From positions 49,691-113,690 of the forward strand of contig JBBQZX010000018.1 of the NCBI GenBank assembly GCA_038207335.1: a DNA stretch of 64,000 bases, read 5' to 3'. Position numbers and translations under genes: made by a program. The notes below the pieces were generated by a model. It was not told the origin of the DNA, searched no databases, and worked only from the letters and a program-made list of their open reading frames with translations. Each line of letters begins with the position of its first letter. Positions within the stretch are counted from its first letter, which is position 1. The DNA comes from Chthoniobacterales bacterium (GTDB taxonomy: Bacteria > Verrucomicrobiota > Verrucomicrobiia > Chthoniobacterales > Chthoniobacteraceae). Shown one piece after another: positions 32,896 to 49,667 of this stretch.

Positions 32896-33687
32896 TTAGC
32901 GCTTCAACTCCAGCACGACCGTGTCGCCGGGTTGCACGCTCTGGCCTTTAGCGAGCGTGCCGGGGATGACGTCGGCGATGGAAGTCGCAGGCTCAACAGT
33001 CGTGACTTTGACCTTCGCAATCGGCTGTCCGCCACGCGTGACTAGCATCTGCGCGTTGTTCTTAAGCCCTGCACGGTCGCCGATGCTGAGAACCACAAAA
33101 TTCCACCCGGCATTGAATGCCAGCACGCGTCCGGTGAGGCCGGGCTTGGAAATCTCCTGCTTGTATTCCTGAACGACGCGCTGGGTGGAAGACAGCTTCC
33201 CTTCGGTGTCCTTCTTCGACGCTTCGAGCGAAATGTTGACCTGCTTCATTTCCGCGAGTTCGGTTTGATTTTTCGCGAGCTGCGCCTCCATGTCTTGGAC
33301 CTTCGCTTTGATTTCCTCAGGATTGATCCCCTTGAATGCTTCTTGAATCTTGGCCAAATCGGCGGCGTACTTGTCGGCTTCCGCGGTCTTATCCTCGAGG
33401 GCCTTCGTCGCGTCCGCGAGCTTTTTGGTCGTGTCCTCAAGGTCGCTCTTCAGCTTCGTGATTTGCATCTCACGATCCGCGAGCGTCGCTTTCGTCGTCT
33501 CGAGTTCCTCTTGAGTCGCTTTCAACGTGGCCTCGGTTTTCGCGAGCTTGTCCTTGGTCGCAGCGAGCGTCTGTTTGGTCTGCTTGATGTCCGCTTGCAG
33601 CGCGACGACTTTGACTTTGGTTTCGTAGCCGAGGTACGCGGTTCCAGCGATGAGCAGGAGTGCAAAGCCGAGGAGGTATTTAGCCAT
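32896..33687 (-). CDS. Membrane-anchored long coiled-coil protein with C-terminal beta domain
   Basis: N-terminal TM, heptad region, C-terminal GWNFVVLSIGDRAGL...VQPGDTV. Confidence 0.85.
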   Translation of the reverse strand: MAKYLLGFALLLIAGTAYLGYETKVKVVALQADIKQTKQTLAATKDKLAKTEATLKATQEELETTKATLADREMQITKLKSDLEDTTKKLADATKALEDKTAEADKYAADLAKIQEAFKGINPEEIKAKVQDMEAQLAKNQTELAEMKQVNISLEASKKDTEGKLSSTQRVVQEYKQEISKPGLTGRVLAFNAGWNFVVLSIGDRAGLKNNAQMLVTRGGQPIAKVKVTTVEPATSIADVIPGTLAKGQSVQPGDTVVLELKR

Positions 33688-33845
33688 ATTTGAGGGTAGC
33701 GGAAATGAAGGGAACCATTTGCGGAGAGTCGCCGCGAGTGGGGTGGGCCGACTTTTAAGCGTCGTTTTTTCACGGATGCAAGCGGTTTCCCCCAAATGTT
33801 CACAAAAGATTTGTGTTCACTCCTCCCCGCGCCATATTCCGCGCT

Positions 33846-33939
<94 letters not shown>

Positions 33940-34139
33940 CTTTTTTTGCCCGCGCAGTCGCGCCACGAAGATTTTGACCGACGGATTTCGCGGATGCGCG
34001 AATATTTTGAAAAGTGAAAACCGTGTGGTGTGCGACATCCGCGGTCGTTTCCGAGCGGTCCGATTTTCAAAATCACGTCTCGCGAGAGGCGACCATTTTG
34101 CGATTGGCGGCGGCAGGCGGCTCCCCTTAATTCCGCCCC

Positions 34140-35378
34140 ATGTTTCGCAGCGGCGCCCATTTTGCCATCCTCGTGCTGGTGATCGGCCTCGTCCTGATGC
34201 GGGAAGCGCGGCAGGAGCCGGTGCGGCAGATCGACGAGGCATTCGCGGACTTTCTCTCGCGCAATAGCCACCGCTCCGAGGAGCCCGTGCCGCTCACGCT
34301 CGTGGAGATCAACGAGGCGAGCATGAAGGGGCATCCGTGGCCGTGGACGCCGCTCGATTTTGCTCTCTTTTTTCAAGCGGCAAATAACTTCGAGCCGGAT
34401 GCCCTCGCGACGGATGAAGTGCTGCGCTGGGACGACCGGGCGGGGCGCGCGGATCTGCAAAACAAGCTGCCCCAATACAAGACGATTCTGCGCGAGCATT
34501 TGCTGCGAGCGCGGCGCGTTCTGCTCGGCGCGCAGCTCGGCTTTCCCGCAGATCCCGAAATCATCCCGCCACTCGAGGAAGTGCCACTCGTGAGGAATGT
34601 GCGCGGCGATTTGAGCGCTGTGCCGGAGTTCACCACGATCAAGGCTCAGGCCGAGGAGGAGTTCCGGCTTTCCAGCACGACAGGCTTCACAAATCTCATC
34701 GATAAAACGCGCGCGCTGCACTCCGTCCCGCTGCTGCTGCGATACCGCGGGCAGGTCGTCCCATCGTTCGTTTTGCAGGCGCTCATGATCTGGGAAAAGC
34801 TGACGCCCGACGATTTGCAGATCGTCGGCGGCGAGCACATCCGCGTCGCGGATCGATTCGATATTCCGATCGATGCGAGGGGTGAAATGCGCGTCGATTT
34901 CGGAGTCCCGCGAGGTCGCTGCGGATTCGACGAACTCGTGCTTGCAAGCGCACAGGCCGATGCGAAAACGCCGACGAATATTCCGCTGGAGACGATCAAC
35001 GGGCGCTTTCTGTTGCTCGCGCGCACCGATGCGGAGTCGCGTAACTTGCACTTCGCAGCGGGTCGCCACGGCTCGGTCGGCGAGCTTTTTGCAGCGGCGA
35101 TCGCCACGTTGCAGAGCCGGTCGTTTCTGCATCGCGCTCCGGCGTGGATGGAGTTCGCAACCATCGCACTGGCGATGCTGGGCGGCTGGTTCGCGCCGCG
35201 CTGGAGCCGCTCGCGGGTCTTCGCCGCGTGCGCTGTCGGCGTGATCATCTACGTGATGGTTGCGATGTCGGTTTTCAGCGCGAGCCTGACATGGATGCCG
35301 CTCATGTTGCCCGCGGGCCTCGCGCTTTTCATCGCGACGTATCGAATGGTCAGCCCATCGGCTCCGCGAGGCGCGTAG
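34140..35378 (+). CDS. CHASE2 domain membrane protein without a cytoplasmic output domain
   Basis: LTLVEINEAS...WPWTP, GFTNL, VPLLLRYRG..VPSF, IPIDARGEMRVDF; three C-terminal TMs, then stop. Confidence 0.8.
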   Translation: MFRSGAHFAILVLVIGLVLMREARQEPVRQIDEAFADFLSRNSHRSEEPVPLTLVEINEASMKGHPWPWTPLDFALFFQAANNFEPDALATDEVLRWDDRAGRADLQNKLPQYKTILREHLLRARRVLLGAQLGFPADPEIIPPLEEVPLVRNVRGDLSAVPEFTTIKAQAEEEFRLSSTTGFTNLIDKTRALHSVPLLLRYRGQVVPSFVLQALMIWEKLTPDDLQIVGGEHIRVADRFDIPIDARGEMRVDFGVPRGRCGFDELVLASAQADAKTPTNIPLETINGRFLLLARTDAESRNLHFAAGRHGSVGELFAAAIATLQSRSFLHRAPAWMEFATIALAMLGGWFAPRWSRSRVFAACAVGVIIYVMVAMSVFSASLTWMPLMLPAGLALFIATYRMVSPSAPRGA

Positions 35379-35423
35379 CACGGCCCTCACGGCCCTCACG
35401 GCCCTCACGGCCCTCACGGCCTT
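35379..35423. repeat. Intergenic 9-bp tandem repeat (cacggccct x5, last copy imperfect)
   Basis: Read directly; begins immediately after the CHASE2 stop codon. Confidence 0.95.
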
Positions 35424-35491
35424 TACTGGACGCGGCGGAGGCGGGTGCGCCTTGCTTTTGAGAAGTCCCGCCCTAGCTTCCTTGCCCACCA

Positions 35492-37588
35492 ATGGCCCAG
35501 GAACCGAGTATCGAAGAAGCGCGCGGCCGTATCCAACGACTCGTCGAAGAGATCGCAGCGCTCAGCAAAAAGGACGTCCGCAGCGAAGAATATTTCGAGC
35601 AATTCCTCATCCGCGTCGTGCAGGCTTGCGACGCGAAAGGCGGCGCGGTCTGGCTCGTCGGAAAGACGAGCGCTGATGGCAAAAGCGAGTTTCAGCTCGC
35701 GGCTCAAGTCGAGTTCGAGGCGACGCTATTTCAGACTGACGAACAGCAGCGCGCGAACCTCCTCAAATCGCTCTCCGAAGTCGTCCAGAGCAAGCATCCG
35801 ATCGTCTTTGCTCCCGCCCATTCGCAGACCGGGGACAGTTCGCTGCAAAGCCAGCTCCAACAGCTCCAGGGCGCATCGCCTCAACCTGAGGGCAACAAAA
35901 CGCCGTATCCATTTCTGAGCGTTCCGCTCTTTCTCAAAGAGCAAGTCCTCGGCGTGCTGCAGGTCTGGCTTCAGCCATACGTCACGCCGGCGAATTACGC
36001 CGAATTTGCCACATTCCTCACCTCGCTCGCGGCGAATGTGGAGCAGCATCTCCAGTCGCGCCGTCTCGGCTCGCTCGTGCTCGAGACGCAGCGCCTCCAG
36101 CACCTTTTGAAATTCACGAGCGACCTCGCCGGCTCGCTCGATCCGCTCGAGGTCGCGCGCCTCTCCGCCAATTACGGCCGCGACCTCATCGGCTGCGAAC
36201 GCTGTTCAGTGCTTGCTCTCGACGGCGACCGCTGGAAAGTGCTCTCGATTTCCGGGCAGGAAACCGTCGAGAAAAAAAGCTCGATGGTGAAGGCGATGGC
36301 CGCATTCGTCGGCGCGCACTCGCGGCCCGAGTTCGTCACTTTGAGCAAAAAGGAACTGCTCGCTCGCGCAGAAGCCCTGCAAAATTCCAACGGCGAAAGC
36401 GCACCCTTGAACGGCGACGAATCCGCGATCGTGCTGCGCCGCACGGACGCCATCGACCTCGCCTATTTCGAGCTCTCGCATGTCGTCAGCGCGGTCGTCG
36501 CGCCGATGCTAGATGACGATAAGCAGATCGTCGGCGCGTATTTCGCAGAGAGCACGAGCGAGGGATTTTTCGAGCCGCAGCCGGGGTCGAAAGATGCGCC
36601 CGCCGGCAGCCGCGTCGCCGAGTGGCTTTCGACGCACACGAGTCGCTCGCTGCGCAGCGCGGACGAGTATCACTCGCTCCCATTTCTCGGCATCACGAAG
36701 CGCATCCGCGGCACTCGCCAGCTCCTCACCGGGCGCAAGCGCAACCGCACGCTGCTCAAGCTCACGGTCATCCTCGCGATCCTCGCCGTCGTCTGCATCT
36801 ATCCAAAACTCGACCGCGTCGACGGCAACGCATCGCTCGTCCCGATGCACCGCGCCGCGGTCGTGCCCGAGATTCCCGGGCGCATCGAGAAAGTCATCGT
36901 TCGCGAAGGCGACCATGTAAAAAAAGGCGATCCGATCGCGCAGATGGACACCAACCGCATCGAGACCGAACTCGCGACGAACGAGCAGGAAAAACTGCGC
37001 GTCTATGCCGACGCGCAGCGCTACCGCGGAATCGGCGACGAAGCCAGCGCGCAGGTCGCCACGCTCCAGGCGCAGGTCATGGAGCAGAACGAAAAGAAGC
37101 TCCGCGCTGACCTCGAAGCCGCCACGCTCCGCAGCCCGATCGATGGCGTCGTGCTGACCAAAGACATCGAGCAGCACGTCGGCGAATTCATCCAAGCGGG
37201 CGCGGGTTTCGCCGAGATCGCCTCACTCACCGAGTGGGAGCTGCAGGTCGATGTGAACGAAAAGGAAATCGGACGCGTCGAATCCGCACTGCCGAAAAAA
37301 CCGACCGACCCGCCGCTCAATGTGAACTACATTCTCTACAGCCAGAGCGCACATGAACTGCACGCGAAGCTCGCGCGCCACGAGCAAATCAGCGCTGCGG
37401 CCTATCCGCGTGAAAAAGACAACGTCTTCCTCATCACCGCGCAAAACCTCGACATCCCAAAACAAATCCTCCCCGCCATGCGCCCCGGACTCACCGGCCG
37501 TGCGAAGATTGACCTCGGTCGGCGGCCTCTCGTCTGGCTCGTCGGGCAGCGCGTCTGGCATTGGTTTGAAATGCGGATGATCGGCTGA
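35492..37588 (+). CDS. GAF-domain-fused membrane fusion protein (HlyD/efflux adaptor)
   Basis: Two GAF-like N-terminal regions (VPLFLKEQVLGVLQV; IGCERCSV), TM, then VREGDHVKKGDPIA lipoyl half, LRSPIDGVV, MRPGLTGRAKI. Confidence 0.85.
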   Translation: MAQEPSIEEARGRIQRLVEEIAALSKKDVRSEEYFEQFLIRVVQACDAKGGAVWLVGKTSADGKSEFQLAAQVEFEATLFQTDEQQRANLLKSLSEVVQSKHPIVFAPAHSQTGDSSLQSQLQQLQGASPQPEGNKTPYPFLSVPLFLKEQVLGVLQVWLQPYVTPANYAEFATFLTSLAANVEQHLQSRRLGSLVLETQRLQHLLKFTSDLAGSLDPLEVARLSANYGRDLIGCERCSVLALDGDRWKVLSISGQETVEKKSSMVKAMAAFVGAHSRPEFVTLSKKELLARAEALQNSNGESAPLNGDESAIVLRRTDAIDLAYFELSHVVSAVVAPMLDDDKQIVGAYFAESTSEGFFEPQPGSKDAPAGSRVAEWLSTHTSRSLRSADEYHSLPFLGITKRIRGTRQLLTGRKRNRTLLKLTVILAILAVVCIYPKLDRVDGNASLVPMHRAAVVPEIPGRIEKVIVREGDHVKKGDPIAQMDTNRIETELATNEQEKLRVYADAQRYRGIGDEASAQVATLQAQVMEQNEKKLRADLEAATLRSPIDGVVLTKDIEQHVGEFIQAGAGFAEIASLTEWELQVDVNEKEIGRVESALPKKPTDPPLNVNYILYSQSAHELHAKLARHEQISAAAYPREKDNVFLITAQNLDIPKQILPAMRPGLTGRAKIDLGRRPLVWLVGQRVWHWFEMRMIG

Positions 37589-37615
37589 TCCCGCAGCTTA
37601 ACTTTTCTCAGACTC

Positions 37616-38344
37616 ATGAAATTTCTCATCGCTCTTTCTGCCATCGCCCTCTGCGCATTCGGTGCCGTCCGCGCCGAAGACACGCAGGGCCTCGTCCTGC
37701 CGTTCAAACTCGTCAGCGTCAGCTCGCCCGTGCTTCAGGAGGTCATCACCGATGTGCTCGTGGAAGAAGGTGACACCGTCAAAGAAGGCCAGGTGATCGT
37801 GCAGCTTCGCGCCGAAAAAGAGGAACTCGAAGTCGAGCGCACCGAGAAGCAAATCGAACTCTACGAATTCAAGGCGAAGGGCTCCGACACACTTTTCCAG
37901 GAGAAAATGGGGAGCAAGGAAAAGTCGCTCGAAGACCAGGCGCAGCTCGCGCTCGCAAAAATCCTGCACCGCTCGGCGGAAGTTTCGCTAAAAGAAAAGA
38001 CGGTCCGCTCACCGCTAGCGGGCATCGTCGTGAAGAAATACAAGGAGGCCGGTGAGTCCGTAGATCGCGTCGAAAAGCTCATCGACATCGTGAATATCGA
38101 CCAGGTCTTCGTGCAGTTTTACCTCGATCCCAAGCTGATGACCTCGCTCAAGAACGACGAGCAGATCCCGGTGAAATTTCCGGTGATTGGCAACGAAACA
38201 TTTCAGTCGAAAATCGCATTCATCGAGCCGCGAATCGATGCCGGCAGTGGCCTCTTTCGCGTGAAAGTCCTCATCGAAAACAAGGACCACAAAATCAAGG
38301 CCGGGATGCGCGGAACCGCCGACTTTTCAAAGACAGGAAAGTGA
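37616..38344 (+). CDS. Stand-alone periplasmic adaptor (MFP) with signal peptide
   Basis: VEEGDTVKEGQVI, VRSPLAGIV, RIDAGSGLFRVKVLIEN...IKAGM. Confidence 0.9.
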   Translation: MKFLIALSAIALCAFGAVRAEDTQGLVLPFKLVSVSSPVLQEVITDVLVEEGDTVKEGQVIVQLRAEKEELEVERTEKQIELYEFKAKGSDTLFQEKMGSKEKSLEDQAQLALAKILHRSAEVSLKEKTVRSPLAGIVVKKYKEAGESVDRVEKLIDIVNIDQVFVQFYLDPKLMTSLKNDEQIPVKFPVIGNETFQSKIAFIEPRIDAGSGLFRVKVLIENKDHKIKAGMRGTADFSKTGK

Positions 38345-38345
38345 C

Positions 38346-40568
38346 ATGAGCGCGACCGCTGCCGCAGCCCCGGAGCCGATCTCCCCGCCACCTCCGCCGC
38401 AGCAGGAGAACATCGTCCTGCCAGCGCTTCGCGGCGATCTAGTCGTCAACAAGCAGCTTTACGAGGGCCGCAGTTACTACGTCGTCAAGGACCCGATCTC
38501 GCTCCAATATTTCCGCATGACGGCGGAGGATTATTTCCTCGCCACGCTTTTCGACGGACGCCGCACATTCGGACAAATCCGCGACCTCTACCTCCAGCGC
38601 TACCCGCACGTCCGGCTCGACTACGACCCGGAGGAGCTGAACGAGCGCGTGCTGCGCTTCGCAAACGACCTCGCTTTGATGCAATTTTTGAGCGTTCAGG
38701 GGATGCGCGTGAAAGCGCGGCTCGACGCCGCGAAGACCCGAAAGAAATCGAAAGGCGGCCTCTACAATCTCGCGAACCAGGTCTTCTTTTTCCGCTTCTC
38801 GCTTTTTGATCCCGACAAGATTTTTGGCCGGATGGCCAAGCCGGTCTGGTGGGTCTGGACACAGCCGGTGCTCTGGATTTCCTGCGCGCTCATCGCCGCC
38901 GCAGTCGTCGTTTTCATCCGCAACTCGGAGGGGCTCGACCAAGCGCTCGCGAATCTTTTCCACTGGGAAAATATCGCGCTCATGTGGGTCAGCACGATCG
39001 TCGTGAAATCGATTCACGAGCTCGGCCACGGGCTCACGTGCAAGCACTTCGGCGGCGAGGTCCACGAGGTCGGCTTCATGGCGCTCGTCTTCACGCCCTA
39101 TTTTTTCGTGAACGTCAGCGACACATGGACCATGTCGAATCGCAAGCACCGGATGCTCGTCTCGGCTGCGGGCATTTACGTCGAGCTCATCTTCGCCGCC
39201 TTCGCCGTCTTTTTATGGGCAGTTATCCAGCCCGGCTGGCTGCACAATTTCCTCTTTAACATCATCATCATCACGTCGGTCTCGACGATCATGTTCAACG
39301 CGAACCCGCTCATGCGGTTCGACGGATACTACATCCTAACCGACCTCATCGAGGTGCCAAACCTGCAGGGCAAAGCGCGCGCGCTCATCCAGCACCAGTT
39401 CAATCAACTGCTCTTCGGCCACAGCTCGAAGGACGCCGTCCTCTCCCGGATGCCGCTCCCGCGCCGCCGCTTCGCGCTCTTTTACACCTACGCCGTGCTC
39501 TCGTGGATTTACGGCTACTGGGTCATCTACAAGCTCATCGTTTTCATGAAGCCGCACCTCCAGCCGCTCGGCCTCGAGGGGCTCTCGGACTGGTTCGCCG
39601 GCCTCGCGCTCGTCTCGTGGATTCTGCTGCCCATCGTTGGATTTTTCAAAACCATGCACCTCACGAAACAAGACTGGAAGCCGCACGGACGCCTGCGCCG
39701 CCTCTCCGCCATCGGCCTCGTCGCGGTCGGAATCTTCGGTGCCGCCTGCTTTCTTCCGGTCAATTTGAAAATCAAACGCGTCGGCGCGGTGGAGCTCGCC
39801 GAGCCCGAGCAGGTGCGCCCGGAGGTCCCGGGATTCGTGGAGGAAATTTACGTGAAAGAGGGCGATCACGTCACCGCCGGGCAGCCGCTCGCTAAGCTCG
39901 GAAACCGCGAACTTTCGCAAAGTCTCAACTCAGTCGAGAACCGCGTGAAAGTCTCGAAGGCAATGGTCGCGCGCGCGCTTGGAATGGAAAAACCGGCGGA
40001 GCTGAAACAGGCTCAGAATCTGCAAGCAGGCCACGCCGCGAAGTTCGAGGAAGCGCAGCGAGACGTGGAAAGTCTCACGCTTCGCGCGCGCACGACGGGC
40101 ACCGTTCTCACGCGCGACATCGACAAGAAACTCGGCCATTTGCTGAGGGGTAACGAGCTCTTCTGCGAAATCGCGGCGCTCGACCCGATGCGGATCAAAA
40201 TCGCATTGAATGAGAAGCAGGTTCGTTACGTGAAGCGTGGGCAAAAGGTGGTGCTTAAGGTGAATGCCTACCCCGACAAAACGCTCCACGGCACGGTCGC
40301 GGAAGACCCGATCATGTTTTTTGGCGAGTCGATTCCCGCCGCTTTTTCAGCGCGGCGCTCCGGCGATGTGCCGGTGTATGTCGATGCAAAAGGGCACGAC
40401 GTGCCGCTCGAGCGCACCTTCGAGGCGGTCGTGTCGGTTGAGAATTCGGAAGGTCTGCTGCGCCCCGGCATGACCGGCCGCGGCAAGATCGACGCGGGCT
40501 CGCGGCTGTGGGGGCAATTGGTGTTGCAGTCGATTCGCGACCTCGTAAGCCTCGATTACCGTTTTTGA
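38346..40568 (+). CDS. PqqD/RRE-like + M50 (site-2) zinc protease + MFP fusion protein
   Basis: YVVKDPISLQYFRM...LFDGRRT N-terminal module; HELGH (39015-39029), SAAG, NANPLMRFDGYY; then VKEGDHVTAGQPL and LRPGMTGRGKI. Confidence 0.88.
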   Translation: MSATAAAAPEPISPPPPPQQENIVLPALRGDLVVNKQLYEGRSYYVVKDPISLQYFRMTAEDYFLATLFDGRRTFGQIRDLYLQRYPHVRLDYDPEELNERVLRFANDLALMQFLSVQGMRVKARLDAAKTRKKSKGGLYNLANQVFFFRFSLFDPDKIFGRMAKPVWWVWTQPVLWISCALIAAAVVVFIRNSEGLDQALANLFHWENIALMWVSTIVVKSIHELGHGLTCKHFGGEVHEVGFMALVFTPYFFVNVSDTWTMSNRKHRMLVSAAGIYVELIFAAFAVFLWAVIQPGWLHNFLFNIIIITSVSTIMFNANPLMRFDGYYILTDLIEVPNLQGKARALIQHQFNQLLFGHSSKDAVLSRMPLPRRRFALFYTYAVLSWIYGYWVIYKLIVFMKPHLQPLGLEGLSDWFAGLALVSWILLPIVGFFKTMHLTKQDWKPHGRLRRLSAIGLVAVGIFGAACFLPVNLKIKRVGAVELAEPEQVRPEVPGFVEEIYVKEGDHVTAGQPLAKLGNRELSQSLNSVENRVKVSKAMVARALGMEKPAELKQAQNLQAGHAAKFEEAQRDVESLTLRARTTGTVLTRDIDKKLGHLLRGNELFCEIAALDPMRIKIALNEKQVRYVKRGQKVVLKVNAYPDKTLHGTVAEDPIMFFGESIPAAFSARRSGDVPVYVDAKGHDVPLERTFEAVVSVENSEGLLRPGMTGRGKIDAGSRLWGQLVLQSIRDLVSLDYRF

Positions 40569-40578
40569 TTTCTCCTCG

Positions 40579-42444
40579 ATGCTGACACCCCGCCCGCGCG
40601 CGCTCGCGCTCGCCCTTCTCGCCGCCAGTTTCTGCACCGCCCGTGCGGCCGATCCGGTAAAGCCGCCGACCTTTCGCACCGGCACTTCGCGGCCCGGCAA
40701 GACCACGAAAGGCGCGGGCATTTTCGACGGGAAGCTCATCGAGAAAATCACGTTGCGCGAGGCGATCAACCAGGCGCTGCGCAACAACCTCGACGCCAAA
40801 TTCGACAACCTCGGCATCGCTTCGGAACACGCGCGGCTGCGGTTCGAGGCAGGCGTTTTCGACCCGACGTTCAGCATCGATCTAGCGCGGGAATCGCTGC
40901 GGCGACCCGAGAATGCGAACGACTTCACCAGCGTCGAGCAAGTCCGCCAACAGAACCAAATCAACGTTGCGGCCGCGCAAGCCGTCGCGCTCAACAACGT
41001 CGCCGCCTCCAGCGCCGCGCAGACCGCGCTCATCAACGCGCAATTCAACGCCGCCGCCTCGCAGGTTGCCGCGGCCGGTGGAGATCAGCAGCTCGCCGCG
41101 CAGCTACAGTCCGCAGCCAGCGCCAATCTCAACGCCGCCGCCAACGCCTTCAACAGCGCCACGGCCGTCTCGAAGTCGGTCAGCAACAATGCCGGCCTCA
41201 CGACTTTCAACTCCACCATCTTCGACCAGCAGAACGACCGCTTTTCCGCGAACCTCATCCAGCGCACGCCGTGGGGAATGCGCTACGGGGTCTTCGTCGA
41301 GTCGAACCGCCTGCGGAACACCTACAGCGGCGACACGCGCGTGGTTTTTCCCGAATATCAGACGCTCGCGCAGGTGCAGATCGTCCAGCCGCTGCTCAAG
41401 GACTTCGGCCCTGCGGCGAATCTTTCGAATGTCCGCATCGCGCGGATCAGCAAAAAGATCGCGATCCTGACGTGGCAGCAGCGCGTGGAGACGAGCATCC
41501 AGTCGGTCATGGCGGCTTACTACGACATGATCTTCGGCCTCGCGGACATCGGCGTGAGGCAGGATGCGATCGCGGCGGATGAAAATCTCGCGCACCAAAA
41601 TCAGCGGCGGCTCGATGTCGGATTCATGCAGCCCTTCGACGTGCAGCAGGCGCTCGCGCAGGTGTCCCTCGATCAGGAGCAATTGCTCACCGCGAAGAAC
41701 ACGCTCTTCGAGCGGCAGTTCGCGCTGAAGCGGCTCATCACCGACCGCTTCGAGGTTAACGACGCGCGCATCTTTCTCCCCGTCGCCGAGCCGCCGCTCA
41801 CGCCGCCGTCCATCGACCGCTCGTTCTTTTTGCAGCAGGCATTTGCGAATCGCCCCGACTTCCAGCAGGCGCTCGCCGAGGCCGATGCGCAGGACATCCG
41901 GCTGCGATTCGCGCGCAACCAACTCCTCCCGCAGCTCGACCTCGTCGCCACCTACGGGCTCAACGGCCTCACGCAGGGGAGCTCGAGAGACAGCTTCGAC
42001 CAGGCCTTCGAGGGGCACACGCCGTCGTGGACAGTCGGGGTCAATTTCCGCGTCCCGCTGGGCAACGTGCAGGCCCGCGCGCAGCTCGCGCTCGTGAAGT
42101 CGCAGAAAGAGCAGGCGATCATCAAAATCAAGCAAAGCGAGCTCGGCATCGGCGTCGATGTGGACACCGTCATCAGCCGCATCGAGGTGAATCAGCAGCG
42201 CGTCACCACCGCGCGCAACACCAGCGCGCTGTACGAGGAAGCCGTCCGCATCGCCTATCGCCGGCTGGATGAAGGGCAGATCTCCAGCTTCGACATCATC
42301 GAGCAACAGCGGCGCCTCTACGACGCTCGCAGCCGCGAGGCCGCCACGCGCGCCGAGCTGAGCAAATCGATCACGCAGCTCTGGCTTGTGACCGGCACGA
42401 TTCTGGAAAAGCTCAACATCCGCCTCGACGCCGGACCGCCGTAG
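40579..42444 (+). CDS. TolC family outer membrane protein with a long Ala/Asn/Gln insertion
   Basis: ITLREAINQALRNNL, QPLLKDFG, NRPDF, LLPQLDL, GQISSFDI. Confidence 0.9.
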   Translation: MLTPRPRALALALLAASFCTARAADPVKPPTFRTGTSRPGKTTKGAGIFDGKLIEKITLREAINQALRNNLDAKFDNLGIASEHARLRFEAGVFDPTFSIDLARESLRRPENANDFTSVEQVRQQNQINVAAAQAVALNNVAASSAAQTALINAQFNAAASQVAAAGGDQQLAAQLQSAASANLNAAANAFNSATAVSKSVSNNAGLTTFNSTIFDQQNDRFSANLIQRTPWGMRYGVFVESNRLRNTYSGDTRVVFPEYQTLAQVQIVQPLLKDFGPAANLSNVRIARISKKIAILTWQQRVETSIQSVMAAYYDMIFGLADIGVRQDAIAADENLAHQNQRRLDVGFMQPFDVQQALAQVSLDQEQLLTAKNTLFERQFALKRLITDRFEVNDARIFLPVAEPPLTPPSIDRSFFLQQAFANRPDFQQALAEADAQDIRLRFARNQLLPQLDLVATYGLNGLTQGSSRDSFDQAFEGHTPSWTVGVNFRVPLGNVQARAQLALVKSQKEQAIIKIKQSELGIGVDVDTVISRIEVNQQRVTTARNTSALYEEAVRIAYRRLDEGQISSFDIIEQQRRLYDARSREAATRAELSKSITQLWLVTGTILEKLNIRLDAGPP

Positions 42445-42465: not shown

Positions 42466-43734
42466 ATGATCATTCGTCGCGCGTTCCTCCAAACCACCGC
42501 CGTCGCCGCGCTCGCCTCGCGACTCCTCGCGGACGACACACGCACGCTGCCGCCGGTGCGCGCGATCACACACGGGCCGAAATTTCATTGGTTCGGGTAT
42601 TACGACAAATTGCAGTTCGACCCAAGCGGGCGATACGTGCTCGGAAATCAGGTCGATTTCGAGCACCGCTCGCCGACGGCGGACGACAAAATTCAGGTCA
42701 GCATGGTCGATTTGGAGAACGGCGACCAATGGATCGAACTCGGCGAATCGCGCGCCTGGAATTGGCAGCAGGGCTGCATGTTGCAATGGCTCCCGGACTC
42801 GGCAAGCGAGGTCATGTGGAATGATCGCGAGCCGGGCGCGGACGACTTTTGCTGCCACATCCTCGATGTCTTCAACGGAAAAAAGCGGACGCTGCCCCAC
42901 CCGGTTTACAATCTGAGCCCGGAAGCGCGGTGGGGCATCGCGCCGGACTTCCGGCGGCTCAACGACTGCCGCCCCGGGTACGGATATCCGGGCATCGACG
43001 ACCCGAATCGCGATGTCGCCGCGCCGGACGACGCGGGGATTTGGAAAATGGACATGGCGACCGGCGCTCGGGCACTCATCATTCCGCTGAGTAAAGCCGC
43101 GACGATCCCGTTTCAGGGCGGCTTCCCGGAAGGTGCGAAGCATTGGTTCAATCACCTGCTTTTCAATCAGGACGGCTCGCGTTTCATCTTCCTCCACCGC
43201 TGGCACGGTGCGAAGGAGCTGAAAGGGAAGTTTTCGACGCGCCTGTTCACTGCGGCGGCGGATGGCAGCGATCTCTTCATCACCGACCCGCGCGGACGCA
43301 CCTCGCATTTTGTCTGGCGCGATCCACAGCACATCGCGGCCTTCGCCGGGCATCCGATGAGCGAGGAGGATCGCTTCTATTTGTTCACGGACAGAAGCGA
43401 CATCGTCGAGCCGATCGGCCACGACGTGATGATCGTGAACGGCCACAACACCTATCTCCCGCGGCACGGCAACGAGTGGATCCTCAACGACACGTATCCT
43501 GACGGGCGCCGCTTGCAAAATCCATATCTTTTCCACGTCCCGACGGGCCAGCGCACATGGCTCGGGCACTTTTTCTCGCCGCCCAAATACGCCGGCGAAT
43601 GGCGCTGCGACAACCATCCGCGCAGCAACCCGATTGGCACCGCGGTGTGCATCGACTCGCCGCACGGCGGCGGCGGGCGGCAGATGTATTTGATCGACAT
43701 CCGCGCGCTCGTCCCGCCGCCGGAGGCGGCGTAA
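42466..43734 (+). CDS. Tat-exported beta-propeller (TolB/oligogalacturonate lyase-like) hypothetical protein
   Basis: IRRAFLQ Tat-like motif; HWFGYYDK, AWNWQQG, WFNHLLFN, RCDNHPR. Confidence 0.75.
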   Translation: MIIRRAFLQTTAVAALASRLLADDTRTLPPVRAITHGPKFHWFGYYDKLQFDPSGRYVLGNQVDFEHRSPTADDKIQVSMVDLENGDQWIELGESRAWNWQQGCMLQWLPDSASEVMWNDREPGADDFCCHILDVFNGKKRTLPHPVYNLSPEARWGIAPDFRRLNDCRPGYGYPGIDDPNRDVAAPDDAGIWKMDMATGARALIIPLSKAATIPFQGGFPEGAKHWFNHLLFNQDGSRFIFLHRWHGAKELKGKFSTRLFTAAADGSDLFITDPRGRTSHFVWRDPQHIAAFAGHPMSEEDRFYLFTDRSDIVEPIGHDVMIVNGHNTYLPRHGNEWILNDTYPDGRRLQNPYLFHVPTGQRTWLGHFFSPPKYAGEWRCDNHPRSNPIGTAVCIDSPHGGGGRQMYLIDIRALVPPPEAA

Positions 43735-45988: not shown

Positions 45989-47863
45989 ATGAGTGCGAAT
46001 ATGAAACTGCTCCCCCTCTGCGCCGCGCTGGCGCTGGCTTCGACGGCTTTTGCGGACCCGCTGGTTTCTTCGTGGATCACGGGGAATTCGACGAAATACG
46101 CGCGGATTTACCAGACGGATGCGGCGAAGCTGGCGGGGACGACGGTGGCGACTTGGACGAATGGGCAGCAGAGTCAGGGCAGCCCGGCTTACTGCGGGGT
46201 GCAGGAGATCGCGGCGTCGGCGAGCTGGGTATATGTGCGCTCGACGGGGCTGGGGAGTCACACGATGGGGCCGTGGTACAATGATGCGTCGCGGACGACG
46301 GCGTTTGTGAATCTGCCGGTGAATCAGAAGGAGATTTTCCGTGTGCCGAGGACGCCGACGGTGCCGGGGACGAAGTCGGTGGTGCAGAATGAGTTCGGGA
46401 TTTTCGTGGATGGGGTGCACGGCTTTGACTCGACGGATGCGACGTCTTACTCGACGACGAATGGACGCGACGGGGACCCGCCGGGGACGCCGAGTGGGGT
46501 GACGGGGAACGGCATCTGGAATCGCGATGCGTTTGTGAATGAGGCGATCACTTTCGACACGGCGCTGGCGCATCAGCAGAACACGGGGGTGTATCATTAC
46601 CACGCGAACCCGATCGGGCCGCGATACCTGCTCGGGGATCACGTTGATTTCAATGCGACGACGAAGGCCTACAGCGAAAGCACGGGTGCGCCCGGGCATT
46701 CGCCGATCATCGGATGGGCGAAGGATGGGTATCCGATCTACGGCCCATACGGCTACGGGAGCGCGATGAACGCCGCGAGCACGGTGCGCCGGATGGTGTG
46801 CGGATATGTGCCGCGCGATGGTGCGAACGGGACGACGAATCTCGCGAGCACCGGCCGGCAGACGATCCCCGCGTGGGCGGGGCGTGTGCAAAATCGCGCG
46901 GTGGCGCTGACTTCCACGCAGTATGGGCCGGCTGTAAGCTCGGCTTTTCCGCTCGGGCGTTACATCGAGGACAACGATTATCTCGGCGATCTCGGCAAGA
47001 CGCAGGGCGTGAATTTCGACCTGGATGAATACAACGGGCGGCTGTGCGTGACGCCGGAGTATTCGAGCGGGACGTATGCGTATTTCGTGGCGATCACGAG
47101 CGCGGGGGTGTCGCAATTTCCCTACAATGTCGGGAAGCGCTACTACGGCTCGCCGACGGGCGGATACGTGACGAGCATCGCGGAAACGGTGACGACGTTC
47201 TTCAGCGGCGGGCCGTCGAAACAGGAGACGATGGTCTCAGCAACGCCGAACGCCAGCGACGTGACGGTGGTCTGGAGCAGCACGGAAGGCGGCACGTATA
47301 AAGTCGAGGGTTCGAGCGATCTGACGGGCGCGTGGAGCACGCTCTCGACGACGAAGACGGCGGATGCGAACGCGGTGCGGACGACTTTCACCGACACGAA
47401 TGGACGGGTCGGGAAGACGCAGCGATTCTACCGCGTGACGCGCACCGCGCTGGCGGCTTACGACGATGTGAGCAGCGGCACGACGGGCGGCGGCAGTGGA
47501 ATTCTGACGGTCTCGCCGACTTCCGGCGCGCGTGGGACGACGGTCGGGCTGACGATCAATCTCGATCCGTCGGTGAATCCGCCGCCGCAGAATGCGCCCA
47601 TCAACAGCGCGACGATCGGCACGATCAATGGCACGAATTTGGTGCACGTCAGCGCGACGCAGGTGACAGGTTCGTTCACGATTCCGGCGGGCGCGGCGCT
47701 CGGCGCGCAGACGGTGAGCGTGACCTTTCCCGGCCCGCCGGGAAATCCGACGGCGACCGTGACGTACACGCTCACGAATGGCTTCACGGTCACGCCGGCG
47801 GGGCTGGCGGCGCAGTCCGCGACGCGAGCGGCCAGGCGCGCTGCGCGGCTCAAGGCGCAGTGA
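45989..47863 (+). CDS. YHYH domain secreted protein with C-terminal beta-sandwich/IPT-like domains
   Basis: Signal peptide (alternative start 46001), AHQQNTGVYHYH, HSPIIGWAKDGYPIYGPYGY, DLDEYNGR..VTPEY..GTYAYF. Confidence 0.9.
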   Translation: MSANMKLLPLCAALALASTAFADPLVSSWITGNSTKYARIYQTDAAKLAGTTVATWTNGQQSQGSPAYCGVQEIAASASWVYVRSTGLGSHTMGPWYNDASRTTAFVNLPVNQKEIFRVPRTPTVPGTKSVVQNEFGIFVDGVHGFDSTDATSYSTTNGRDGDPPGTPSGVTGNGIWNRDAFVNEAITFDTALAHQQNTGVYHYHANPIGPRYLLGDHVDFNATTKAYSESTGAPGHSPIIGWAKDGYPIYGPYGYGSAMNAASTVRRMVCGYVPRDGANGTTNLASTGRQTIPAWAGRVQNRAVALTSTQYGPAVSSAFPLGRYIEDNDYLGDLGKTQGVNFDLDEYNGRLCVTPEYSSGTYAYFVAITSAGVSQFPYNVGKRYYGSPTGGYVTSIAETVTTFFSGGPSKQETMVSATPNASDVTVVWSSTEGGTYKVEGSSDLTGAWSTLSTTKTADANAVRTTFTDTNGRVGKTQRFYRVTRTALAAYDDVSSGTTGGGSGILTVSPTSGARGTTVGLTINLDPSVNPPPQNAPINSATIGTINGTNLVHVSATQVTGSFTIPAGAALGAQTVSVTFPGPPGNPTATVTYTLTNGFTVTPAGLAAQSATRAARRAARLKAQ

Positions 47864-47921
47864 GATGCGCTCACGCGGGGCCGGTTGCGCTTCGCGTCTT
47901 GTGCGAGAAAGTCGGGGAAGC

Positions 47922-49667
47922 ATGAACTTTCTGAAGCGCATTTGCTGCATCGCGGTCGCGCTCATCGCCGCTGCGACAACGGCGGAGGGTGCGGCGCTGG
48001 ATCTTTCGATGCGGCATACTTTTGGCGGTGAGCCGCTGCTGCTCGATTCGCTGCGATACAAGAACGCTGTGGGCGAAACGCTATCGATCACGCGGCTGAG
48101 CTATCTGCTGAGCGGCTTTGCGGTTCAGGGCGAAAATGGAGAGTGGATCGAACTGCCGGGGCAGTTTGCATGGATCGATGCAGGCGCGCGGCGTACGTCC
48201 GCGCGGCTGCCGGAGGTGCCGGTCGGGAAATATCGCGCGCTGCGCTTTTTCATCGGGCCGGACGCGAAAACGAATGCCGCGGAGGCGGGCGCTTTTCCCG
48301 CCGATCATCCACTGAACCCCAATCTCAACGGACTGCACTGGAGCTGGCAGGGCGGCTACATTTTCCTCTCGCTGGAGGGCCGCTTCCGCACGGCGGCGGA
48401 TGCTCCGCTCGACGGCTTCGCGTATCACCTGGCGCGCGATCCGCACCGGACGAGCATCACGCTCGCAGCCGCGCTCGATCTCACGCAGGACGCCGCGGTG
48501 CAACTCGATTTCGACATCGCAGCGCTGCTCCGGGCGCCGCGTCCGCTCTCATTTGCGAGCGACGGAACTGCCACGCATTCGCGCGACGGCGATCCTGTGT
48601 GCGCGGCATTGATGGCGAATTTGCCGGGAGCCTTTTCTGTCAGCGCGACCACCGGGGCGGCCCCGACTACTCCGGCTGTCACGCGAGTTGCGCCGCTGGA
48701 TTTGCCGGCAAAATTCACGCCGTATCGGTTCAAAGTCAGCCGCACTTTTCCGCCGCCGAAGCTGCCAAACGACAATCCGCTGATCGAGGAGCGTGTGGCG
48801 CTAGGAGCCGCGCTTTTCAAGGAGACCGCACTCTCGCGCGACGGGTCGATTTCATGCGCCTCGTGCCACCGGCCGGACACGGCTTTTTCCGACAACCGCG
48901 CAACCAGTCCCGGCATGGACGCGCGCACCGGCAGGCGCAACGCGATGCCTCTCACGAACCTTGCCTGGAAGAGCGCGTTTTTTTGGGACGGGCGCGCGCC
49001 ATCTCTCCGCGCGCAAGTGCTGATGCCGATTCAGGATCACGCGGAGATGGACGAATCGCTGGATCGCGTGGCCGCAAAACTAGCGGTGCGCGACGATTAT
49101 CGGACGGAGTTTCGCGCGGCTTTTGGGAGCGGGGAGATCAGCGCGGAAAAGCTCGCGCTCGCACTCGAGCAATACCTGCTGACACTCACGGCGAATCACT
49201 CGAAATTCGATCGCATGCTGCGCGGCGAGGAGAAGCTGAGCGACGAGGAGCAGCACGGGTTCGAGCTGTTTATGACCGAATACGATCCGCGCACCGGCAA
49301 GCGCGGCGCGGATTGCTTTCACTGCCACGGCGGGCCGCTCTTCACGGACAATCTCTTTCACAACAACGGCCTCGCGCCCGATCGCGCCAACCCCGACATC
49401 GGCCTCGGAGCGATCAGCGGCAACGCTGCGGACGCGGGGAAATTCGCGACACCGAGCCTGCGTAATGTCGCCCGCACCGCCCCCTACATGCACGACGGCC
49501 GCTTCGCCACGTTGGAGGAAGTCGTGGCGCACTACTGCAACGGTGTGGAGCGCAGCGAGACACTCGATCCGAATCTCGCGAAGCACCCCGCCGCAGGGCT
49601 ACCGCTCACGACGGAGGATCAGCGCGCACTCGTGGCGTTCCTGAAATCGCTGACGGATGCTCCTTGA
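47922..49667 (+). CDS. MbnP-like domain fused to a di-heme cytochrome c peroxidase (MbnH/MauG family)
   Basis: Signal peptide; LHWSWQGGYIF WxW motif; CASCH and CFHCH heme sites; FFWDGRA, TPSLRNVARTAPYMHDGRF. Confidence 0.88.
   Translation: MNFLKRICCIAVALIAAATTAEGAALDLSMRHTFGGEPLLLDSLRYKNAVGETLSITRLSYLLSGFAVQGENGEWIELPGQFAWIDAGARRTSARLPEVPVGKYRALRFFIGPDAKTNAAEAGAFPADHPLNPNLNGLHWSWQGGYIFLSLEGRFRTAADAPLDGFAYHLARDPHRTSITLAAALDLTQDAAVQLDFDIAALLRAPRPLSFASDGTATHSRDGDPVCAALMANLPGAFSVSATTGAAPTTPAVTRVAPLDLPAKFTPYRFKVSRTFPPPKLPNDNPLIEERVALGAALFKETALSRDGSISCASCHRPDTAFSDNRATSPGMDARTGRRNAMPLTNLAWKSAFFWDGRAPSLRAQVLMPIQDHAEMDESLDRVAAKLAVRDDYRTEFRAAFGSGEISAEKLALALEQYLLTLTANHSKFDRMLRGEEKLSDEEQHGFELFMTEYDPRTGKRGADCFHCHGGPLFTDNLFHNNGLAPDRANPDIGLGAISGNAADAGKFATPSLRNVARTAPYMHDGRFATLEEVVAHYCNGVERSETLDPNLAKHPAAGLPLTTEDQRALVAFLKSLTDAP

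Follow-up and report, generated by a model that had tools for sequence, protein, structure and literature searches.

A secretion-like locus was described by Kamneva, Poudel and Ward in 2015 (PMC4452313), in which genes for M50-HlyD, GAF-HlyD and HlyD proteins, and optionally an OEP gene, stand around a secondary SecA_DEAD gene. The locus was reported from PVC bacteria and Proteobacteria, and contained no ABC transporter. SecA was proposed as its ATPase and the M50 protein as the membrane pore, unlinked SecA copies were mentioned, and the biological role was called unknown. The accessible text of that paper names no cargo, RRE or leader, and the terms PqqD, Planc_extracel and DUF3467 are absent from it. 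In our study, we analysed a stretch of 64,000 nucleotides from a Chthoniobacterales bacterium (GenBank assembly GCA_038207335.1, contig JBBQZX010000018.1, positions 49,691 to 113,690; hereafter the window), which was found to contain a four-gene cluster of this kind at 35492-42444. The cluster encodes a membrane fusion protein (MFP, or periplasmic adaptor) with GAF domains, a stand-alone MFP, a fusion of an RRE domain, an M50 metalloprotease and an MFP, and a TolC-family channel. It shares with the published locus the same three HlyD-type proteins, the optional OEP gene and the lack of an ABC transporter. Unlike that locus, which is defined by its SecA paralogue, the window cluster lacks a SecA in cis, comes from a clade in which a secondary SecA is often absent genome-wide, and tracks a dispersed family of proteins with an N-terminal ExLExRIAPA tag. 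M50 with HlyD, GAF with HlyD, stand-alone HlyD/biotin-lipoyl and OEP proteins were all found in the window, but no secondary SecA_DEAD was found there; the cluster is therefore a variant of the published locus that lacks its defining SecA, and not a full member. A preliminary description of this DNA knew of no established mechanism or substrate for the assembly; the locus with secondary SecA, with a proposed pore and ATPase, was already in print.

Peptidase-containing ABC transporters couple the removal of an N-terminal leader to export, as is proposed here, but their peptidase is a C39 cysteine peptidase whereas that of the window is a membrane metalloprotease. The type I systems HlyB-HlyD-TolC and LapBCE (generally described in PMC4452313 and PMC6584795) resemble the window cluster in their MFP-TolC duct and large repetitive cargo. 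The cluster differs from them in having no ABC transporter, in having three different adaptors, and in a signal that is likely N-terminal, on proteins of 600 to more than 3000 residues. We consider it reasonably likely that the four genes are a dedicated export machine for large surface-type proteins carrying the ExLExRIAPA tag. The tie between the cluster and the tagged proteins is very probable; that the M50 protease cleaves the tag, as argued by analogy, and that the cluster exports the tagged proteins are each probable. The cluster would thus work like a leader-directed secretion system.

No cargo gene or tagged open reading frame (ORF) was found within the window, as had been noted before. 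A search of the genome that started from an N-terminal motif of Planctomycetes found the ExLExRIAPA pattern 27 times. Long ORFs, with 588-3352 residues past the tag (median about 1,260), follow 24 of these tags; one tag runs off a contig end, and two head short frames, at G000:C5:70506 (+) and G000:C7:127958 (-), which stop soon after the tag and are apparently broken genes or assembly errors. In all 24 long ORFs the tag lies 2-39 residues past the nearest upstream Met. The leaders have no hydrophobic core (best 19-residue hydropathy 0.66-1.47), and the mature parts abound in Gly, Ala, Ser and Thr but contain almost no Cys. The regions after the tag form 13 groups among the 24 proteins. In the 23 tagged proteins that were scanned, FG-GAP, Calx-beta, SBBP propeller, passenger repeat, collagen and cyclophilin domains were matched (Pfam in 9 proteins, NCBIfam in 7); neither Pfam nor NCBIfam gave an autotransporter barrel or any further listed export domain on them.

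The Planctomycete motif was reportedly proposed by Studholme in 2004. PMC8567305 describes it as a candidate export signal of a new kind, without assigning a machine in the accessible text, and reports the detection of 20 of 52 motif-bearing proteins by proteomics. The ExLExRIAPA tag resembles Planc_extracel (PF07595, RRLxxExLExRxLLA) and LEPR-XLL (NF012209) in its ExLExR core near the N-terminus and in standing on large, adhesin-like proteins without a signal peptide. It differs from both in ending with IAPA, and it escapes both profiles, which gave no match among the 23 ExLExRIAPA proteins at E 0.001 or 0.01.

The tie between tag and cluster is carried by their distribution in the family, which was profiled in 104 genomes at least 85% complete. 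An M50-MFP was counted as window-type at 49% identity or more, all other types being at 37% or less; the M50-MFP and SecA counts come from at most 10-11 candidates scored per genome. Tag and window-type cluster were both present in 39 genomes and both absent from 62, the tag alone was found in 3, and the cluster alone in none. A leader motif that co-occurs with the cluster, for which the preliminary description had suggested phylogenetic profiling, was thereby found. The reversed pattern was found in none of the 104 genomes, and of the 17 genomes whose M50-MFPs are all of other types, 16 lack the tag. The distribution was patchy within genera, with both, tag only and neither in 12, 1 and 7 genomes of genus g22, 3, 1 and 16 of g7, and 2, 0 and 1 of g12. 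When mapped on a SecA tree that covered 81 of the 104 genomes, the tag changed 7 times, the cluster 9 times and the secondary SecA 18 times. In 7 independent pairs of genomes that differ in the tag, the cluster followed the tag in all 7 and the secondary SecA in only 2, a comparison that rests on a one-gene tree and a greedy choice of pairs. The misses among the 42 tag-bearing genomes numbered 3, against 3.0 expected from incompleteness. In 2 of 26 same-type loci, the cluster has tagged genes as its immediate upstream neighbours. A literature search, which reached few subscription papers, found no publication tying the tag to the module.

In this genome, and in five more of those with tag places listed, a small DUF3467 gene immediately precedes tagged genes; such genes also stand inside M50-MFP clusters elsewhere. 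One such gene, L132:1456-1764 (-) on G000:C2, lies ahead of two tagged genes. The strong DUF3467 class (best E <1e-11, a threshold set after the score gap had been seen) was present in 38 of the 42 tag-bearing family genomes vs 1 of the 62 others, and all three tag-only genomes carry it. An Atlas search for the function of DUF3467 returned its own family only, and the single paper given for it has no bearing on the subject.

The RRE-M50-MFP fusion runs from a leader-binding-type RRE domain through a multi-pass site-2-type metalloprotease to a periplasmic adaptor, and its family numbers at least 2930 matches among 8000 scored candidates. The Peptidase_M50 match is weak (E 1.9e-5, 24.5 bits, under the 27.2 cut-off). 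The HExxH and NPxxxxDG motifs are intact in this protein and in 72/72 aligned sequences, in all of which H224, E225, H228, P321 and D326 are invariant; the role of D326 as the third metal ligand is that of established M50 chemistry. The window protein itself had no Pfam PqqD match, and PqqD was matched by 36 of the 72 aligned homologous N-termini. A model of residues 20-160 contained three strands and three helices in RRE order, and its best structural matches, at moderate Z, were TbiB1 (Z 8.5, root-mean-square deviation 2.6, 79 residues aligned), TfuB1 (Z 8.3) and PqqD (Z 6.7). Seven of the nine top structural matches were RRE-bearing proteins, as judged by their titles or general knowledge. 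A sequence profile of the RRE-M50 part gave only weak matches to solved structures (MJ0392, E 0.063; TfuB1, E 0.61).

Residues 20-480 of the fusion were predicted in complex with a 32-residue peptide from the start of one tagged protein, which gave a score of 0.68 whereas the best of three controls gave 0.02; of the reference pairs, 116 of 157 solved and 2 of 215 mismatched ones attain the mark for this score, figures that apply here only roughly. The runs agreed in at least 49% of contacts, with a partner pLDDT of at least 47. Confident contacts came only from the tag (peptide residues 11-23), which in the model touches RRE strand 3 including the invariant R57, the invariant W261, P338 and N339, and E225, H228 and D326 of the metal site. 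RRE strand 3 (Q54-T59) is thus the predicted leader-binding edge.

An analogue of this arrangement was found in the daptides (bioRxiv 10.1101/2023.03.08.531785), where an RRE-site-2 protease fusion, MpaP/DapP, is encoded with precursors bearing the tag ELExMEAP, and the products start after Pro. The daptide cut was deduced from product masses, and the motif mutants were assayed on MpaB and not on MpaP. The likeness lies in the RRE-M50 architecture and in the L-E-x-x-x-A-P spacing of the tag, which aligns with L-E-x-R-I-A-P and suggests, by analogy, a cut at Pro-Ala. Unlike the window cluster, MpaP/DapP has no MFP fusion or TolC, handles short-peptide cargo and co-occurs with ABC transporters. 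The best NCBIfam match of the window fusion was the daptide protease family NF041824, at 162.8 bits vs a cut-off of 300; the RRE fold and intact motifs of the MpaP type were found, whereas a neighbouring short precursor with modifying enzymes was not. This curated match speaks for a small ribosomal peptide as the cargo, by the example of the daptides, the large tagged proteins then being incidental. We regard that as very improbable, as the window holds no tagged ORF, 24 of the 27 tags head the long ORFs given above, and no peptide-modifying enzyme recurs beside the cluster. For the export machine that we prefer, the earlier suggestion that the RRE recognises a leader and the M50 enzyme cleaves it is supported by the candidate leader, the genome profile, the predicted complex and the daptide analogue.

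No ABC, RND or MFS family was matched among the 51 window ORFs scanned, an ABC signature pattern searched across six frames of the window found nothing, and tblastn of the window with four ABC exporters and one RND pump was equally empty. In a search of 109 related loci for ABC and RND genes, an ABC ATPase or RND match was absent from 103. The 6 exceptions had no common arrangement, their matches lying at different positions, and the single RND match was on the opposite strand, 5.4 kb off, and was itself the query. Neither the clustering of ORFs from 80 loci nor the scanning of 28 chosen neighbours gave a pump-like conserved neighbour. By its gene content the cluster falls outside the type I secretion systems, since it has the MFP and the TolC-family channel but no linked ABC transporter, and outside RND/MFS tripartite efflux, since no RND or MFS pump is in the window. 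The absence of a pump in or near the cluster, claimed in the preliminary description, is upheld by these searches, and no consistently linked ABC or RND transporter emerged in other genomes. The term pump-less is shown for the locus and not for the genome, because a paralogous cluster elsewhere in the genome carries a secondary SecA.

An unlinked ABC transporter might nevertheless read a C-terminal signal and pump through these adaptors as in conventional type I secretion, with the RRE-M50 part only trimming an N-terminal retention or chaperone segment. The genome has four ABC_membrane genes, a C-terminal region is common to 15 of the 24 tagged proteins, and C-terminus-first type I export was proposed for two Chlorobium LEPRxLL giants that leave the cell (preprint 10.64898/2026.03.19.712371). 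Against this, all four ABC exporters lie on contigs devoid of MFP or TolC matches to the queries used, no ABC gene is conserved in cis, nine tagged proteins are without the shared C-terminus, no RTX calcium-binding family was matched in the 23 scanned, and five-gene cassettes bounded by insertion sequence (IS) elements, described below, move without an ABC gene. We consider such a type I route unlikely.

The paralogous cluster, on contig C16, is of the published form, with SecA_DEAD adjoining the M50 gene. About 21 kb from it, an ORF of 24,413 codons (G000:C16:1616-74857, -) starts with the LEPR-XLL form; it matches NF012209 above the cut-off and has no in-frame ATG ahead of the motif. A 2169-codon ORF (L081:3933-10442, -) lies downstream of the C16 SecA paralogue; it carries a PEP-CTERM motif (residues 218-242) and, after it, FG-GAP and TSP3 repeats, and may combine two genes in a single reading frame. 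In a tree of 60 M50 domains, the window copy fell among those of other Chthoniobacteraceae and separately from that on C16, though the node of the window clade had a support of only 0.57 and lies behind a long branch. A secondary SecA was found in the fetched flanks, some of them short, of 3 of 80 related loci.

No full-length secondary SecA was found in 15 of the 39 window-type family genomes, against 2.8 expected from incompleteness, and these 15 include 4 of 5 same-genus genomes and ones that are 96-100% complete. All candidates were scored in 50 of 79 genomes; among the 19 verrucomicrobial genomes so treated, a secondary SecA was not found in 8. An obligatory secondary SecA is thus excluded for the window clade, and housekeeping SecA, proton-motive force or translation could each supply the energy. 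The cargo and tag may be as proposed here with a SecA-type ATPase nonetheless obligatory, namely the C16 secondary SecA acting in trans in this genome and the housekeeping SecA elsewhere, perhaps with SecYEG carrying the chain across the inner membrane first and the MFP-TolC duct taking it from there. This has most steps in common with our proposal and differs from it in the motor. It agrees with PMC4452313, where a SecA_DEAD ATPase was proposed and unlinked copies were noted, and with the place of the secondary SecA beside the paralogous cluster. A secondary SecA was found in 29 of 31 planctomycete-type genomes and was enriched in tag-bearing family genomes (25/42 vs 12/62), and housekeeping SecA was matched in 103 of the 104 family genomes. 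The SecA-less genomes, the pairs in which secondary SecA seldom follows the tag, and a tag without the hydrophobic core for SecYEG stand against it. It is a substantial possibility, but a less likely one.

A device for processing or signalling, rather than a conduit, was considered as well, in which the RRE-M50 protein clips proteins that leave by another route while sensing or anchoring falls to the adaptors, the GAF domains and TolC. Regulation by intramembrane proteolysis is an established role of M50 enzymes, no pump is linked to the cluster, and ECF-type sigma factor genes stand inside two paralogous loci. These are genes of about 660 aa of the sigma-70/ECF type, between the MFP and GAF-MFP genes of a SecA-less cluster type (L114:5858-7837, +; L115:12964-14973, -). 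However, the association of the protease with three MFP domains and TolC persists across phyla, neither an autotransporter barrel nor another of the listed export domains was found on the 23 tagged proteins, whose leaders lack a hydrophobic core, and the M50 enzyme EpeP is thought both to cleave and to export (review PMC10885120). We hold a pure processing or signalling role to be quite unlikely.

In the export machine as we picture it, the RRE would bind the tag along strand 3 and lay the tag end against the M50 metal site, as in the predicted complex, and the protease would cut at the tag end, probably after Pro. Judging by domain content, the freed N-terminus may then enter a ring of three adaptors docked on TolC, so that the chain would exit N-terminus first, and gene linkage suggests the small DUF3467 protein as an accessory factor. 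The core may be ATPase-optional, with the chain threaded during translation and pulled by folding outside, and the secondary SecA may be a booster that is retained chiefly by those copies with giant proteins as cargo. An ATPase-optional core fits the observation that the LEPR-XLL form, near the SecA-bearing cluster here, is much longer than the RIAPA proteins. This energy scheme is the weakest step and is preferred only tentatively; a borrowed housekeeping SecA is somewhat less likely, and an unlinked ABC pump is improbable. More broadly, the cluster may represent a secretion class of its own, a proposal that we put forward with some reserve. In such a class a RiPP-style reader, the RRE, and an intramembrane protease would take the place of the ABC transporter, ExLExR tags (RIAPA, LEPR-XLL, Planc_extracel) would direct proteins of 600-24,000 residues N-terminus first through a three-adaptor TolC duct, SecA paralogues would be optional boosters, and no dedicated ATPase would be needed.

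Across the phylum, the M50-MFP was found in 47 of 201 genomes. LEPR-XLL proteins were found in 14 of the 201, all 14 with an M50-MFP, and in none of the 154 genomes without one; each of the 14 holds an M50-MFP copy in a single score band, with E between 1e-50 and 1e-62, and in five cases the distance is no more than 5 kb. The 26 LEPR-XLL ORFs matched have a median of about 5,800 codons. Loose DNA patterns for the tag were also tried across the phylum and were uninformative, most genomes being no higher than the reversed control. In the Planctomycetota, PF07595 was matched, mostly below the cut-off, in 14 of 151 genomes (9 of 45 with M50-MFP vs 5 of 106 without).

Plasmid records with a match to the module numbered 73, and six of them were opened. 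The module is also carried by Azospirillum plasmids, and Methylobacterium extorquens AM1 is mentioned as a host in PMC4452313. In E. coli, Kosakonia and Thalassospira, a giant gene starting LE[PS]RxL was found with TolC and three adaptors and no ATPase beside them. The E. coli cassette has five genes, is ATPase-free and flanked by IS elements, and was found on plasmid and chromosome in 24 of 5426 genomes. The Methylosinus and Alisedimentitalea plasmid loci include a SecA paralogue, and the starts of their giants lie beyond the stretch examined. Past the Kosakonia cassette come three small co-oriented 'tail fiber' genes (L131:22131-24238, +). The Pectobacterium MRP adhesin, considered as a possible user of this machine, was dropped, as the accessible literature describes a LapA/LapG-type system for it.

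Several observations weigh against the proposed export machine. Two tag-only genomes, G056 (87% complete) and G141 (96%), have many tags but no M50-MFP or GAF-MFP match, and the third, G078, has a distant M50-MFP type only. In 33 of the 47 M50-MFP genomes of the phylum there was no LEPR-XLL match; among those of their loci that were read, L109, L110 and L111 had ExLExR/LExR-type starts nearby, and several had none in 20 kb. In the Planctomycetota the distribution points neither way, with 36 M50-MFP-positive genomes lacking a PF07595 match, and the gene upstream of the Magnetospirillum plasmid cassette, which may be a remnant, has no tag. The peptide fold is uncertain in the predicted complex, whose pass may reflect likeness and not binding because RRE-leader complexes (TbiB1, TfuB1) are solved. 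The daptide motif has Met where the ExLExRIAPA tag has Arg, at a position important for the MpaB RRE. The C-terminal region common to 15 tagged proteins could itself be a signal. The near-constant secondary SecA of the planctomycete-type genomes, its presence on C16 in this genome, and the one-gene tree and greedy choice behind the pair comparison must be added to these.

The features of the cluster are given in Table 1. All five genes are on the same strand, and the gaps of 27, 1 and 10 bp among the last four were confirmed from the coordinates; the CHASE2 and GAF-MFP genes are 113 bp apart. Pfam matched CHASE2, GAF with HlyD, HlyD, Peptidase_M50 with HlyD, and OEP in the five proteins in order. 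The GAF-MFP protein contains two GAF-type domains at about residues 31-395, a single hydrophobic segment at 420-438 and then the periplasmic adaptor. Pfam finds the first GAF only, and a folded model of residues 5-410 (mean pLDDT 85) has two GAF-type layers, with tandem GAF structures as its best matches. The tandem GAF domains, the PqqD/RRE-like N-terminus and the HELGH...NPLMRFDG metal site of the preliminary description are therefore borne out, whereas its inclusion of CHASE2 is not. CHASE2, in which no catalytic domain was detected, was present in only 4 of 15 same-type loci with sufficient upstream DNA and was rejected as a core component; it is for this reason probably non-core. The hydrophobic N-terminus of the stand-alone MFP may be a signal peptide, judging by its hydropathy. 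The TolC gene was in cis in 15 of 20 same-type loci, and 4 of the other 5 stop at a contig edge. The closest homologues are from Chthoniobacteraceae-type Verrucomicrobia at 55-87% identity, followed by Planctomycetes at about 30%.

Table 1. Features of the cluster in the window, with the evidence for each.
Feature	Coordinates	Strand	Evidence
Stand-alone CHASE2 membrane protein, 412 aa, probably non-core	34140..35378	+	Pfam
GAF-GAF-TM-MFP adaptor, 698 aa, core part	35492..37588	+	Pfam, fold model
Stand-alone MFP adaptor, 242 aa, core part	37616..38344	+	Pfam HlyD domains
RRE-M50-MFP fusion, 740 aa, core part	38346..40568	+	Pfam, alignment, model
Predicted RRE/PqqD-fold domain, about residues 23-114 of the fusion	38412..38687	+	Model, homologue profile matches
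HELGH zinc-binding/catalytic motif, H224-H228	39015..39029	+	Motif, alignment
NPLMRFDG motif with D326	39303..39326	+	Motif, alignment
TolC-family outer-membrane channel, 621 aa	40579..42444	+	Pfam OEP

Variants of the layout were seen in related loci. The same-type clusters L017 and L124 have MFP, M50-MFP and TolC genes without an adjoining GAF-MFP gene. In Gemmataceae-type loci (L049:7587-9857, +; L037:7778-9916, +), the middle gene, of about 710-760 aa, contains a WD40 beta-propeller, which in L049 is fused to MFP domains. Directly upstream of the window cluster, in the same orientation, is a small bacterial signal recognition particle (SRP) RNA gene (33847-33941, +); it was found upstream of the cluster in the window and in 2 of 8 loci tested (L002, L009), was absent from the six others, and was rejected as a functional link and read as local synteny. 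A membrane-anchored coiled-coil protein (32896-33795, -) is divergent from the cluster and syntenic in 5 close loci. Within the gap between the CHASE2 and GAF-MFP genes is a 9-bp tandem repeat of 4.8 perfect copies (35379-35421). A 422-aa ORF with a twin-arginine-like start follows 21 bp past TolC (42466-43734, +); it has no Pfam or NCBIfam match and was not seen beside the cluster in 80 related loci. Farther downstream, a YHYH protein and an MbnP-MbnH (di-haem peroxidase) fusion (45989-49667, +) lie beside a two-component pair and are likely a copper-related locus.

If our proposal is true, it would join a secretion-like locus described in 2015 without a cargo to N-terminal motifs that were first suggested in 2004 to direct export and that have had no machine since. 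A tag-directed exporter of so few pieces, namely four genes, a ten-residue tag and a predicted cut site, would be a helpful laboratory tool for secreting proteins. A signal at the N-terminus is well suited to export during translation, a mode that the C-terminal signals of type I systems cannot allow, and the SecA-less clade raises the question of the driving force for a TolC duct without a pump. The proposal would explain how very large adhesin-like proteins are delivered to the surface in Verrucomicrobia, Planctomycetes and many Proteobacteria.

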